Source: Escherichia phage WPEC3. From it: a stretch of DNA of 64,000 nucleotides. Below the pieces are notes generated by a model. The model was not told where the DNA came from and searched no databases. It saw nothing but the letters and a program-made list of their open reading frames with translations. Of this stretch, positions 15,617-25,509 are shown in pieces. Position 1 is the first letter of the stretch. Every line of letters begins with the position of its first letter. Both the position numbers and the translations under genes were made by a program. The DNA lies in the sequence record PV611058. One strand, given 5' to 3'.

Positions 15617-15988
15617 TTATAACATACGTTTTTTACGAATAGTATTGTGGATATTTTTTAAGTAGTTCACACCTTTACACAACCCATAAAATACACCAGC
15701 ACATACACCAAATGCAGGTATCATACATGCAAACATCGTTATCAATTCCCACATCTCCATGCCATCTTGATTCGGTCCAAGGTCAAAGATAACAACCGAA
15801 ACCAAACCTGTGATACTTAGCATATAATATGCCATGAAGATAATAAAAGAAACAATACCAACATCAGAGCGAACTGAATTTAGCATATTATATACTGGGG
15901 TTACACAGAAGTAATACAATAACCAAATCAAAGAACCTAAACTAAACACAATAATAGTAATGATCGAAAATATTTCACGATAACTCAT
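15617..15988 (-). CDS. Small integral membrane protein (family member 1 of 10)
   Basis: 123 aa, 3-4 hydrophobic segments, basic C-terminal tail (RKKRML); first of 7 tandem co-oriented paralogues. Confidence 0.55.
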   Translation of the reverse strand: MSYREIFSIITIIVFSLGSLIWLLYYFCVTPVYNMLNSVRSDVGIVSFIIFMAYYMLSITGLVSVVIFDLGPNQDGMEMWELITMFACMIPAFGVCAGVFYGLCKGVNYLKNIHNTIRKKRML

Positions 15989-15989
15989 T

Positions 15990-16352
15990 TTAGTTCCTCT
16001 TACCTAAACGCTCATGGATTTCGGAAATCTTATTATACATCCATGCCAGCAACTCAACGGATGCACAGAGAATAACCACACACAGTGTTAGTGAACATAC
16101 CATAATACCAAATGTTATAAAATTCAAACTCGATGTTAATAATGCAACCAGCATTAGAATAAAACCAAAATTGAATGCCGTACTCAACACAGTATATGCT
16201 GGACTATATCTCCTTTGTATTACATCATATATATTTGATAATGGTCGCTTATGGAAGTACTTCCCGATGCACACGAATGCATTCAGTGAGAAGATAAATG
16301 TATACGCCATTACCATTAATTGACCAATAAAAGATAATTCAATATTATTCAT
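15990..16352 (-). CDS. Small integral membrane protein (family member 2)
   Basis: 120 aa, hydrophobic, basic C-terminus (LGKRN). Confidence 0.55.
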   Translation of the reverse strand: MNNIELSFIGQLMVMAYTFIFSLNAFVCIGKYFHKRPLSNIYDVIQRRYSPAYTVLSTAFNFGFILMLVALLTSSLNFITFGIMVCSLTLCVVILCASVELLAWMYNKISEIHERLGKRN

Positions 16353-16353
16353 G

Positions 16354-16725
16354 TTATCCTCGTTTGCGGTATTTGATGCTTTGGTGCATTCTCTGAAAAT
16401 GTGGAACTAATACATATTGTACGGTTTGCCAAATTACCATCAGATTATGGACAGCACCACCGAGTAGACCAAACACTACACAGATAATTGCCAGTACTGG
16501 ATCACCATCTACCATACCCCATTTGAATATATGTAAAATCCATACAGTGATAAGTAGTAATAAACTAATCCAATACGTAGTAAAAAATCCTGCATGTAAT
16601 TCATAGTCATCAGCAATTTCATCGTATACGGTTTCCAAGAAGGATACACAGAAGAACTTGCCAATAATAACAATTGTACTAATAAACAACATAGCAGTTA
16701 ATATAATAAGTGCAATTTCCATCAC
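16354..16725 (-). CDS. Small integral membrane protein (family member 3)
   Basis: 123 aa, hydrophobic, basic C-terminus (KYRKRG). Confidence 0.55.
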   Translation of the reverse strand: MMEIALIILTAMLFISTIVIIGKFFCVSFLETVYDEIADDYELHAGFFTTYWISLLLLITVWILHIFKWGMVDGDPVLAIICVVFGLLGGAVHNLMVIWQTVQYVLVPHFQRMHQSIKYRKRG

Positions 16726-17036
16726 ATCCCTCGTTTACGCTTTTGATTGCGTCTAAATTCGGTTAGCCCACGAGTAATCGGTGGCATCAGACTACATAAA
16801 AAAATAACAGTTGTTGGTAATAACATGAAGTCAATCATTGCTGTATTAACAGGTGGTTCACATATCAAATAATACAAGCAAGTAATACTAATTATGGTTG
16901 ACCCAATAAAAGGAATACAAAATTCTTTTATCTGTTTTTCAACATAATCAAACATCTTCAGTACAAATAAAAATCCAACCCAACACATAATAAAATAGAA
17001 TGAATAAAGCGTGTAAATCAATGTTACGATATCCAT
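16722..17036 (-). CDS. Small integral membrane protein (family member 4)
   Basis: 104 aa, hydrophobic, basic C-terminus; start overlaps upstream stop. Confidence 0.55.
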   Translation of the reverse strand: MDIVTLIYTLYSFYFIMCWVGFLFVLKMFDYVEKQIKEFCIPFIGSTIISITCLYYLICEPPVNTAMIDFMLLPTTVIFLCSLMPPITRGLTEFRRNQKRKRGM

Positions 17037-17374
17037 TAGTACCTCGCATCAGGAACTTTAGCACGTAATTTATGAACGACTGGGAACAACAACAAACTTA
17101 CATATGCAATAGTTGAACCCCAATAGAATACTAATATAATTGGTTCACCATTGGAACGGAACCCTCTACTAATCATTGAGTAGTGAATAATTGGCATAAT
17201 CATCGCCATACCAAACCATGCGTGTAATTTTAATTGCAACAGGTGTTCAGAGATGAATACTGAAATTGGTCGTTTGAAGAACCACATAAGAAAGTAGAAT
17301 CCAGCACTAAGAATATAGTACATAATACTAACTTTCATATACCACGGCAGTAAGTGTAAAAAATATTCCATCAT
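17036..17374 (-). CDS. Small integral membrane protein (family member 5)
   Basis: 112 aa; C-terminus KLRAKVPDARY. Confidence 0.55.
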   Translation of the reverse strand: MMEYFLHLLPWYMKVSIMYYILSAGFYFLMWFFKRPISVFISEHLLQLKLHAWFGMAMIMPIIHYSMISRGFRSNGEPIILVFYWGSTIAYVSLLLFPVVHKLRAKVPDARY

Positions 17375-17718
17375 TCCTCCGGTATCTTGTTTCGAAGTTC
17401 AATCATAACACAACAAATTTTAATGGTCAAGTAAAAAACTACACATATCATACCCAATGTACCGTAAACTGCGGAGAATGCTGGCAGTACCTTTCCTGTG
17501 AGTGTTGCTACAATACATGCTATCAATGTTGATGCAAACAACGATTGATTAATGAAAGAATTCATAAAATCTTCACCATTACGCTTATAGAATTGTCGTT
17601 TAAAATACCATCCTAGAAACATAACTACCCAAAATGTTACATAACCTGTTAGAATAATCCCTGCAATTGAATGTGCAACAGAACTACTCTTTAAAAACTC
17701 AAGATAAGATTCAAACAT
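17371..17718 (-). CDS. Small integral membrane protein (family member 6)
   Basis: 115 aa; C-terminus IELRNKIPEE; 4-nt overlap with neighbour. Confidence 0.55.
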   Translation of the reverse strand: MFESYLEFLKSSSVAHSIAGIILTGYVTFWVVMFLGWYFKRQFYKRNGEDFMNSFINQSLFASTLIACIVATLTGKVLPAFSAVYGTLGMICVVFYLTIKICCVMIELRNKIPEE

Positions 17719-23750: not shown

Positions 23751-23826
23751 GACAATTCCTCGATTGTGGGGATGAGAAGTTCATCCCCTTGATAAACATT
23801 ATACAGTACTGAATGAGTTTGTCAAC

Positions 23827-24207
23827 TCAAAATAAATTCATTTCATGTGCGTATTGTGGTTCAAGATGCGATAAGTTTTTGAAGCTTTCTTTCAACTCAG
23901 CATCATCTACATACACAGTACCTGGTACATTTCCCATAGTGAAACCTACCCACACAGTCATGTTACCAGTCCCTAAGCGTGGCATTGATAGCGAACCATC
24001 AGGGGAAACATCAAACGCTACACTGAAGTCATCAGTAACAACGTCAGAACCATTTTCGAGAATAATACATCCACTATCTTTAAGCTTCTGAATGTGGATA
24101 GCAGCCTCTACAGCACGTTTGAAGTTATAGTAAGACTCTTTATCCTCAAACATTGATTGTTTAATCAGACGCTTGTTTAGCTCGGTTACTTTGTGCATTT
24201 GACGCAT
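23827..24207 (-). CDS. Hypothetical protein
   Basis: 126-aa ORF. Confidence 0.45.
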   Translation of the reverse strand: MRQMHKVTELNKRLIKQSMFEDKESYYNFKRAVEAAIHIQKLKDSGCIILENGSDVVTDDFSVAFDVSPDGSLSMPRLGTGNMTVWVGFTMGNVPGTVYVDDAELKESFKNLSHLEPQYAHEMNLF

Positions 24208-24464
24208 TACTTATCCATCTCCCACAGTTGTAGAATTTCATAAGAGCCTGGTGGTGCTGGATTCCTGATCTCAGGGAATTGAGTACTTTTAGGATTTCCA
24301 CCAGCATTAAATTCGTCAAGTAATGATTCCAGTTCGCGACGATCCTGAACAACATAAACACAATCACCTGAACCTTCTTCGAGAATCATTTCACTTCCTG
24401 CACAATCCCATACTGTTGAGATACATAGAATCTCTTTTGTATTTTTATTACGCAATGCAAACAT
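24207..24464 (-). CDS. Hypothetical protein
   Basis: 85-aa ORF, start/stop overlap with neighbour. Confidence 0.4.
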   Translation of the reverse strand: MFALRNKNTKEILCISTVWDCAGSEMILEEGSGDCVYVVQDRRELESLLDEFNAGGNPKSTQFPEIRNPAPPGSYEILQLWEMDK

Positions 24465-24473
24465 AGCAATCCC

Positions 24474-24842
24474 CTATCGATTTGGCATTTTATCTCGTAA
24501 TTTCACAAGATAATCAATCACGGTACATCCTGAAATAAAGGTAATATAAGTACTGAAAAATCCTACCAGAATAAAGGCAACAAGCGTACTCCCATTTGGT
24601 TCTTCAGCTTTAATACCAATGATACCATCAGATGCAGTGAAAAATGTAGACATAAACGTTAGACATATGTACATCACTAATAAGAATTCATGTTCTAATG
24701 ACGGATAAAAACGATCAAAAAGTTTATAAAATTTAAAGTACAGTAGGAGTATACCAACAAAGGCATAGAAAGTAAACAGTGTTGTTATGATATATGATAT
24801 TAAATTTAAATTATACATCTCAACGCTCCGGTAGATTATCAC
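24474..24842 (-). CDS. Small integral membrane protein (family member 8)
   Basis: 122 aa; FKFYKLFDRFYPS... and C-terminus KLRDKMPNR match the 15.6-18 kb family. Confidence 0.55.
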   Translation of the reverse strand: MIIYRSVEMYNLNLISYIITTLFTFYAFVGILLLYFKFYKLFDRFYPSLEHEFLLVMYICLTFMSTFFTASDGIIGIKAEEPNGSTLVAFILVGFFSTYITFISGCTVIDYLVKLRDKMPNR

Positions 24843-25167
24843 GTAATGTTTTGATTCGATTATACAATTTCATTGCTACATTTCCAAATAAACCAAAACC
24901 CATTACTAAAATGTATGCGATGATCATAGTAATAATTACAATAGTACCTAGACTGTAATGTACTGCACTGATACCCATTATTGTTTCTACAATGATGTGA
25001 GCAACAGAAATAATCAAAAGTACTACTACAATTGGATGATTTGGATACATTCGGTTAAACAATGTTTTGTACTTAAAGAAGTACAGTACTCCACCAAATA
25101 AGAAGTACACAATGTAGATTGATGCAACGGCATAAGCAAACGCATTAGTGTAAAAAATCATTATCAA
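24820..25167 (-). CDS. Small integral membrane protein (family member 9)
   Basis: 115 aa; C-terminus TLRDNLPER. Confidence 0.55.
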   Translation of the reverse strand: MIMIFYTNAFAYAVASIYIVYFLFGGVLYFFKYKTLFNRMYPNHPIVVVLLIISVAHIIVETIMGISAVHYSLGTIVIITMIIAYILVMGFGLFGNVAMKLYNRIKTLRDNLPER

Positions 25168-25170
25168 TCC

Positions 25171-25509
25171 TTACTTTTCAGGGATTTTATTACGCCACTC
25201 ATCGATGCGATGAAGCAGTTTAAAGAGCAAAAATATCGGAACAGTAGCTATCATAGTAGCAATTGTTAGTAATGTCAACACCGATACGAGATTTAATTCG
25301 TCAGTACTATATCCACATACCAGTGCTTCAATTATCCCCCACGTACATGCACTGAACATCAAAAATGAAATTGGTGCATCGTAGTATATGCGTTGATATA
25401 AGGTCGTGTATCGGAAGAATGCAATAATGTAACAAAACATGTAATACACCCAAATTAACGATACTACATAAAATGATACCTTATTAATTAATTCAAAATG
25501 ATGTTCCAT
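25171..25509 (-). CDS. Small integral membrane protein (family member 10)
   Basis: 112 aa; C-terminus WRNKIPEK. Confidence 0.55.
   Translation of the reverse strand: MEHHFELINKVSFYVVSLIWVYYMFCYIIAFFRYTTLYQRIYYDAPISFLMFSACTWGIIEALVCGYSTDELNLVSVLTLLTIATMIATVPIFLLFKLLHRIDEWRNKIPEK

Follow-up and report, generated by a model that had tools for sequence, protein, structure and literature searches.

Two tandem arrays of small predicted membrane proteins in an Asteriusvirus form one superfamily linked to an NrdC.10-like ATPase gene

What are the ten small hydrophobic proteins that Escherichia phage WPEC3 encodes in two tandem arrays, are they one family, and what might they do? The window analysed here, 64,000 nucleotides (nt) of sequence record PV611058, is by sequence match that of an Asteriusvirus, a 121Q/PBECO4-like jumbo phage of E. 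coli, with 97-99% identity to Ecwhy_1 and EC.P1 and ~84-91% to 121Q, PBECO4 and phAPEC6. A preliminary description of the sequence had pointed to seven open reading frames (ORFs) at 15617-18056 and three at 24474-25509, and all ten are there, on the minus strand, each encoding 104-123 amino acids (aa). We name them in order of transcription, m7 to m1 from 18056 down to 15617 (the main array) and n3 to n1 from 25509 down to 24474 (the second array); their counterparts in 121Q are genes 225-232 and 207-209. Unrelated genes fill the ~6.4 kb between the arrays (18057-24473), and a family hidden Markov model (HMM) found no further members elsewhere in the window. Profile comparison unites the ten in one superfamily, within which m1-m4 make up subfamily A, and m5-m7 together with n1-n3 subfamily B.

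The original proposal that the ten genes are one paralogous family of small polytopic membrane proteins is borne out by profile methods and their controls. Alignment of all against all upholds it only in part: BLAST is significant within n1-n3 (1e-7; 7e-12 for n2-n3) and nowhere else, and most pairwise E-values among the ten exceed 0.01. Since pairwise BLAST is convincing only within n1-n3, we used profiles and controls. In a leave-one-out test, 9 of the 10 members scored 13-27 bits, with shuffled sequences at 11 or below and reversed ones at about 0; the weakest score, 4.2 bits, was that of m5. An HMM built from the ten window proteins alone recovers the array genes of RaK2 (seven at E≤7e-4), of Erwinia phage Hallingskeid, and of JNE01 and A4, and no unrelated ORF in those genomes (504-634 ORFs) does better than E=0.2.

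BLAST clustering yields eight orthogroups, whose independent orthologue profiles were compared with HHalign. Within subfamily A the probabilities are 97.0% for m3-m2, 96.3% for m3-m1, 90.6% for m2-m1 and 74% for m4-m3; within subfamily B they are 95.5% for m6-m5, 87.5% for the n-group with m6, 80% for the n-group with m7 and 80% for m7-m6. Reversed-target controls stay at or below 2% for any group. Several cross-subfamily pairs of orthogroups fall below 40%. The merged A and merged B profiles align end to end over 106 columns at 93.4% (E 2.6e-7), as against 8.9% over 25 columns for the reversed control.

Could similar length and hydrophobicity alone have assembled several unrelated small membrane proteins, or two or more unrelated groups, into this family? 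The mostly insignificant BLAST values, the low cross-subfamily probabilities, the poor score of m5 and the placement of most members in separate PHROGs families could be taken that way. However, reversing or shuffling the sequences leaves their composition intact and yet lowers the scores greatly, and the similarity thus goes beyond the hydrophobic composition. Among 634 ORFs in other genera, the ten-member HMM picks out array genes alone; it passes over further small membrane proteins, of which the product of 22728-22979 is one, and the members have architecture, motifs and synteny in common.

Our helix calls rest on Kyte-Doolittle windows and AlphaFold2. Each protein has three hydropathy peaks and the AlphaFold2 models of m3 and n3 agree; of the three to four helices first ascribed to each protein, three stand and a fourth does not. 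Over 88 sequences of the family, hydropathy averages 2.0-2.4 in the three best windows of 17 residues. The model of m3 (predicted local distance difference test (pLDDT) 91.1, predicted template modelling score 0.76) has helices at residues 2-23, 27-38, 40-66 and 76-121, with a short helix in loop 1 and a third transmembrane helix (TM3) that runs on into the basic tail; the model of n3 has three helices at pLDDT 69. The family fold is predicted to be three long antiparallel helices. Lysine and arginine together average 7.3 on loop 1 and the C-terminal tail, compared with 1.1 on the N-terminus and loop 2, a bias present in 88 of 88 sequences that therefore predicts an N-out/C-in topology. In this orientation the proteins would sit in the inner membrane of the host, the N-terminus facing the periplasm and both loop 1 and the basic C-terminal helix facing the cytoplasm. 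Common to both subfamilies are this basic helix and a [GW][KY]FF[CK] motif at the cytoplasmic end of TM1. Within orthogroups, mean pairwise identity is 0.46-0.49 for the N-terminus, TM1, loop 1 and tail, and 0.29-0.37 for TM2, loop 2 and TM3.

The preliminary description considered so large a single family unusual. Rather than a peculiarity of this genome, it proves to be a conserved feature of RaK2-like jumbo phages, to which the family is confined as judged by our searches. A word-indexed search of 5.8 billion clusters matched 25 proteins, several of them on ~350-kb contigs, and an exhaustive HMMER scan of 1.84 billion representative proteins gave 24 matches, one on a 324-kb metagenomic contig. 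Both scans brought up close relatives only. All matches are 77-127 aa long, and those with a traced source all lie on jumbo-phage genomes or contigs of ~0.3-0.4 Mb. The main array is present in 35 of 35 Asteriusvirus records, and 32 of these match 80% or more of its length, with nucleotide identities of 80-99%. An NrdC.10-like gene stands directly upstream of the array in the window, 121Q, JNE01, A4, RaK2, Hallingskeid, fENko-Kae01 and the 324-kb metagenomic contig (L011). After it follow eight members in RaK2 (Alcyoneusvirus), ten in Hallingskeid, ~4 in Klebsiella phage fENko-Kae01 (some detected only weakly) and eight in the 324-kb contig, which has two more upstream. Family copy number per genome is 4-11, and members occur in a tandem array directly 3' of the NrdC.10-like ATPase gene or in a secondary array upstream.

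The NrdC.10-like protein of the window is ~40% identical to T4-type NrdC.10 and 54% to nrdC.10 of RaK2, belongs to phrog_1250 and has a weak AAA_16 match. No family array was found beside NrdC.10 in T4-type phages and PA5oct, and the T4-type nrdC.10 neighbours NrdC.7, NrdC.8, NrdC.9 and RB69ORF104c were checked and are not family members. The gene is also mosaic, its protein being 99% identical to that of JNE01, 87% to that of Hallingskeid and only 59% to those of Ecwhy_1, 121Q and A4. For the m-array the pattern is the opposite: its nucleotide sequence is ~99% identical to that of Ecwhy_1, and its proteins are 31-51% identical to those of JNE01. The two patterns imply a recombination junction between 18056 and 18124.

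Are the proteins already known under other names? Scans of all ten against Pfam, NCBIfam, PADLOC and PHROGs matched no characterised family, and the same databases gave no match to a holin, Imm/Sp, colicin-immunity or defence-system profile. Fold searches of PDB and BFVD found no known relative, only a PBECO4 orthologue (the BFVD match of n3, named 'Transmembrane protein') or generic three-helix bundles. In PHROGs, 8 of the 10 match family 27618, 26405, 33258, 27396, 19046, 19454 or 19285 at E 1e-46 to 1e-60, and m2 and n1 have weak matches only; m6 corresponds to phrog_19046 and cross-matches phrog_16874, phrog_19454 and phrog_27396. These PHROGs entries are of 'unknown function', 16874 being labelled 'membrane protein'. 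None of the papers examined on 121Q, PBECO4, Sharanji, UE-S1, phAPEC6 and CBB mentions the array proteins as a family, which is undescribed as such.

The positions of the ten genes and of the signals around them are collected in the Table. Annotated relatives and junction sequences suggest shorter starts for m3, m5, n2 and n1; P0044 and the n1 orthologue of 121Q begin at MYNLNL.

Table. Array genes and the elements that delimit their transcription units (window positions; a dot marks a bidirectional element)
Feature	Position	Strand	Length (aa)	Likely start	Subfamily	Remarks
m7	17718..18056	-	112		B	First main-array gene; leave-one-out HMM 23.0 bits; three hydrophobic peaks; orthologues 121Q_5, A4_2, JNE01_4, RaK2_3
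m6	17371..17718	-	115		B	Tail ...ELRNKIPEE
m5	17036..17374	-	111-112	17371	B	Tail ...LRAKVPDARY
m4	16722..17036	-	104		A (loosely)	Tail ...RRNQKRKRGM; orthologues JNE01_7, A4_5, RaK2_5
m3	16354..16725	-	122-123	16722	A	GKFFCV motif; orthologues in RaK2, Hallingskeid, fENko-Kae01
m2	15990..16352	-	120		A	
m1	15617..15988	-	123		A	Last main-array gene
n3	25171..25509	-	112		B	First second-array gene
n2	24820..25167	-	113-115	25161	B	
n1	24474..24842	-	114-122	24818	B	
NrdC.10-like AAA+ ATPase gene	18124..18897	-				Directly upstream of main array, same predicted transcription unit
Composite terminator hairpin and consensus sigma-70 promoter	18926..18960	-				TTGACA-18-TATAAT; heads NrdC.10 and m7 to m1
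Promoter-like site	18086..18114	-				TTGACA-17-TACTAT; overlaps weak hairpin between NrdC.10 and m7
Bidirectional intrinsic terminator	15585..15611	.				Ends main array between convergent genes; 12-bp stem; -15.6 kcal/mol, z -5.2
Composite terminator/promoter element	26246..26278	-				Heads two upstream genes, then n3-n2-n1

When would the arrays be expressed? Judging from these signals, the main array and the NrdC.10-like gene are one promoter-to-terminator unit. The hairpin of its leading composite element has -17.2 kcal/mol and z -5.6, and the element is conserved 5' of NrdC.10 in 121Q, A4, JNE01 and fENko-Kae01. The promoter-like site between NrdC.10 and m7 is kept in 121Q and JNE01; its hairpin alone is not significant (z -1.15). 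For CBB, a related phage, it has been suggested that RpoD-like promoters define the early region of host takeover and that late genes go with a TATAAATA-like motif (PMC5259590). In the window, the T4-type late motif TATAAATA is strongly under-represented, with 2 copies found against 12.1 ± 3.1 expected. Neither copy (28503-28510 and 29745-29752) is near the arrays, and the first lies directly 5' of a 503-aa structural-protein gene starting at 28481; depletion and placement together fit use as a late promoter. The preliminary description had likened the arrays to those of phage early regions, and this is supported by the consensus sigma-70-type promoters at the head of both units and the lack of a T4-like late promoter near the arrays. 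From these promoters, the distribution of TATAAATA and the promoter assignments in CBB (PMC5259590), we infer that the array proteins are made early by host RNA polymerase. The published virion proteome of phAPEC6 (62 proteins; PMC7247149) does not include their orthologues gp012c-gp017c, a weak argument given how easily mass spectrometry misses small hydrophobic proteins.

The composite element is repeated on the minus strand, at 18926-18960, 20912-20935, 21633-21656, 26255-26278, 26937-26960, 28518-28541, 29298-29321, 32892-32915 and 41017-41040 (8 matches at up to 3 mismatches, against 0 expected by chance, plus a variant at 18955). It consists of an intrinsic-terminator-like hairpin, GGGTTGAC-TTCG-GTCAGCCC, and a T-run; the 5' arm holds a -35 box, TTGACT, and TATAAT comes after the T-run at most sites. 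Such elements appear to close one transcription unit and open the next. A second promoter-like class on the same strand, with TTGAC at 57783, 57362, 55710, 38653, 34691 and 23825, shares TTGAC(A/T)...CAGTACTGTATAAT, and its AGTACT core also occurs in the terminator stems at 13699-13723 and 15585-15611.

Within the arrays, packing is tight. The window junctions comprise four 1-nt overlaps, four 1-nt gaps and one 9-nt gap; across six genomes, 24 of 44 intra-array junctions overlap, mostly by 1 or 4 nt, and 13 are gaps of 1-3 nt. Overlaps and 1-nt gaps of this kind fit the translational coupling that had been proposed from the packing. At 33 of the 44 junctions, the final codons of one gene contain the Shine-Dalgarno (SD) core of the gene that follows, written for example as CCGGAG (P-E), CGAGGN (R-G) or AAGAGG (K-R), and the embedded SD restricts the C-terminal residues to P-E, R-G, K-R or K-E/D. 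The P-E-E codons of m6, CCGGAGGAA, are themselves the SD of m5. This bears on the similar basic tails, of the form LRxK[IVM]P[ED], that were first taken as common to all ten: m5, m6, n1, n2, n3 and, in part, m7 have them, but m1-m4 end in H..I[KR].KR(G). Since the SD of the next gene lies in the tail codons, part of the tail similarity is set by the ribosome-binding site. The motif is also written with other codons (CCT GAA in n3) and is therefore not an artefact of that site alone. For annotation, the lesson is that overlapping signals can mimic a protein motif.

How old are the paralogues? Best-hit analysis pairs members of the window with those of RaK2: m7 with RaK2_3 (27% identity), m6 with RaK2_2 (23%), m5 with RaK2_4 (37%, E 4e-19), m4 with RaK2_5 (28%), m3 with RaK2_6 (30%) and m1 with RaK2_7 (40%, E 1.5e-24). 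Gene order is partly kept from the E. coli phages to RaK2, and from this positional orthology it follows that the duplications are older than the split of the genera. Against 121Q, the ratio of nonsynonymous to synonymous substitution rates (dN/dS) is 0.10-0.37 for nine members, and these are therefore real coding genes under purifying selection. Between the window and JNE01 and A4 the arrays are 26-64% identical, and DenV and other neighbours 92-100%; dS is 0.15-1.5 in the arrays, ~0.09-0.10 in the conserved neighbours hyp184 and hyp123 and 0.35 in DenV. The pattern points to deeply diverged array cassettes, with exchange of old alleles and not fast amino-acid change. Copy number changes too: m7 is duplicated in 121Q and m4 in JNE01, and A4 has one n-type gene compared with three in the window. 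The extra m7-like gene of 121Q, gene 224, sits between NrdC.10 and m7 (positions 11322-11663 of our 121Q sequence, L005). In the same sequence, the m4 orthologue is split into two short ORFs, genes 228/229 at 12683-12998, either as a pseudogene or by sequencing error.

We propose, tentatively, a model where the array proteins act one by one, as accessory factors in the inner membrane. A common, better-conserved scaffold would be formed by TM1, loop 1 and the basic tail, and the poorly conserved TM2-loop2-TM3 hairpin of each paralogue would bind a different membrane-embedded target and so give specificity. The effect would be to protect the infected cell, either by blocking the entry of superinfecting DNA or by neutralising membrane-acting host defence or toxin effectors. 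We lean to this reading, which seems possible to us rather than probable, because the arrays diverge as cassettes and fluctuate in copy number, because the proteins would expose very little to the periplasm, and by analogy with the type VII secretion system, in which strings of non-identical tandem tsaI membrane immunity genes are reported to confer protection from a toxin that depolarises membranes (PMC9484751). Superinfection exclusion, which the preliminary description had put forward together with membrane-targeted host takeover, is a plausible role. Most likely the arrays serve neither lysis nor virion structure.

Several points weigh against protective binders. Pfam, PHROGs, NCBIfam, PADLOC and the fold searches gave no homology to a characterised exclusion, immunity or anti-defence protein. 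Whole-gene dN/dS is purifying, not diversifying. From Asteriusvirus to RaK2, gene order and the orthologues of m1, m3, m4, m5 and m7 are retained, and no Asteriusvirus record (of 35) is without the main array, a persistence that fits a conserved multi-subunit machine as well as independent effectors. Early timing is read from promoter consensus only. Finally, with so little of each protein exposed to the periplasm, any block of incoming DNA must act within the membrane.

The first alternative is that the paralogues are subunits of one hetero-oligomeric inner-membrane complex, assembled co-translationally and docking on, or driven by, the NrdC.10-like AAA+ ATPase via cytoplasmic juxtamembrane motifs. 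NrdC.10 is directly 5' of the array in every lineage examined, and the space between them in Hallingskeid and fENko-Kae01 is too short to hold a promoter. Overlaps and 1-nt gaps would suit stoichiometric coupling, paralogue order is kept between genera, and the most conserved parts of the proteins are those predicted to face the cytoplasm. However, T4-type phages and PA5oct have NrdC.10 with no adjoining family member, and the n1-n3 array is not beside an ATPase gene. A copy number of 4-11, lineage-specific duplications and a split member sit poorly with a fixed complex, as does the promoter-like site between NrdC.10 and m7 in Asteriusviruses. We find such a complex conceivable but doubtful. 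It is tempting to go one step further and to see in the NrdC.10-like ATPase and the array an unrecognised early membrane machine of RaK2-like jumbo phages, in which a hetero-oligomeric membrane ring or platform would recruit the ATPase through [GW][KY]FF[CK] and the basic C-terminal helix and drive an active process at the host membrane, for example one that extracts or inactivates membrane proteins or defence effectors of the host; this more specific version we rate as rather unlikely.

The arrays could instead remodel or reprogramme the host inner membrane for general takeover, through membrane proliferation, through anchoring of replication or giant-capsid assembly sites, or through inhibition of transporters or the divisome. 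Early-type promoters, polytopic topology and purifying within-gene selection agree with such a role, and their occurrence in every Asteriusvirus record, and in related genera as well, suggests one tied to the biology of the clade. Nothing specific speaks for it, though, and the arrays are, together with the NrdC.10 and RCC1-like genes, among the most divergent genes of a conserved neighbourhood and vary in copy number, a pattern more typical of conflict loci than of housekeeping. We hold this possibility, too, to be on the unlikely side.

Holins, antiholins or other lysis-timing proteins of class I type are a poorer candidate still. The array proteins fit the generic class I description in size, in having three transmembrane domains (TMDs), in the N-out/C-in topology predicted for them and in the charge of the cytoplasmic tail; RaK2-like endolysins have an N-terminal TMD, and the phage literature examined names no holin (PMC5259590). 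On the other hand, no holin profile in Pfam or PHROGs is matched, neither neighbourhood contains an endolysin or spanin (the 121Q endolysin is gp532 (PMC5259590), far from array genes 207-209 and 224-232), sigma-70-type promoters and no late-promoter motif lie 5' of the arrays, and eight to eleven ancient paralogues are not expected of a holin. Genomic context and promoter type lead us to reject this reading as improbable. The composition artefact considered above is the least credible explanation, and the low scores of the reversed and shuffled controls dispose of it almost entirely.

The neighbours of the arrays deserve a brief account. Between the arrays lie the NrdC.10-like ATPase gene, a repeat-rich homing-endonuclease-like gene, DenV, an HNH gene and several unknowns. 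The repeat-rich gene (19316-20866) encodes a 516-aa protein with six internal repeats of ~85 aa (...VCIIDPVYGEFWQTPSSHL...) and matches homing/HNH-endonuclease PHROGs; the HNH gene (21650-22063, 137 aa) was so labelled from its sequence and has no Pfam match. Both are probably mobile insertions, because 121Q and JNE01 lack a counterpart of either one here. Two small soluble paralogues, at 22076-22411 and 24207-24464, both belong to phrog_8563, and one lies directly 3' of n1. The 83-aa hydrophobic protein of 22728-22979 is outside the family (it is absent from the family-HMM matches listed at E≤10) and is 96-99% conserved across Asteriusviruses, in contrast to the divergent arrays on both sides. 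On the plus strand, an array of RCC1-repeat paralogues (12559-13695, 14456-15580 and further upstream) converges on the m-array. The same convergence is seen in 121Q, A4, Hallingskeid and the metagenomic contig; JNE01 and fENko-Kae01 probably share it, although their convergent genes carry no annotation. The RCC1 homologues of phAPEC6, gp003-gp010, are virion-associated, and RCC1 genes are 24-36% identical between cassette types.

In jumbo phages, genes without a known function number in the hundreds. PHROGs keeps the array proteins in separate, unannotated families; here eight such families, of 'unknown function' or labelled 'membrane protein', are joined into one clade-specific superfamily of two subfamilies with a defined (predicted) fold and topology, an operon structure and an evolutionary pattern, and this superfamily is tied to the neighbourhood of the widespread NrdC.10 ATPase. 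If the proteins do serve exclusion or anti-defence, they would be an unusually large and diversified set of membrane-embedded phage effectors, with a bearing on host range and on the design of therapeutic cocktails; many Asteriusviruses are proposed for therapy. If they instead form a complex with NrdC.10, they would provide the first lead to the function of a gene that T4-like phages have in common.

How do the array proteins compare with small membrane proteins whose roles are known? They resemble class I holins of the lambda S105 type in length (~100-125 aa), in three TMDs, in the predicted N-out/C-in orientation and in a basic cytoplasmic C-terminus; they differ in having no holin profile match (Pfam/PHROGs, E≤1), in lying apart from endolysin and spanin genes, in their sigma-70-type rather than late promoters, and in their 8-11 ancient paralogues. 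With Imm and Sp of T4, and similar single-gene superinfection-exclusion membrane proteins, they compare as small proteins of a virulent myovirus that are predicted to reside in the inner membrane, to be made early and to be non-structural and accessory. There is, however, no detectable homology, and the array proteins have three TMDs (Imm has two and Sp one) and come as a multi-paralogue array and not as a single gene.

TsaI and the immunity proteins to E1/Ia-type colicins are, like the array proteins, small and polytopic, of ~110 aa, and act within the membrane, as the array proteins would. The array proteins have no homology to TsaI, ImmE1 or ImmIa in Pfam and NCBIfam, are phage rather than bacterial or plasmid genes, and are predicted to lie N-out/C-in, the opposite of the topology of ImmE1. 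No toxin-like domain was recognised in the array neighbours, a weak negative since many of these are of unknown function. Even so, the reported strings of non-identical tandem tsaI paralogues (PMC9484751) recall the arrays themselves, with seven and three members here and 4-11 in their relatives.

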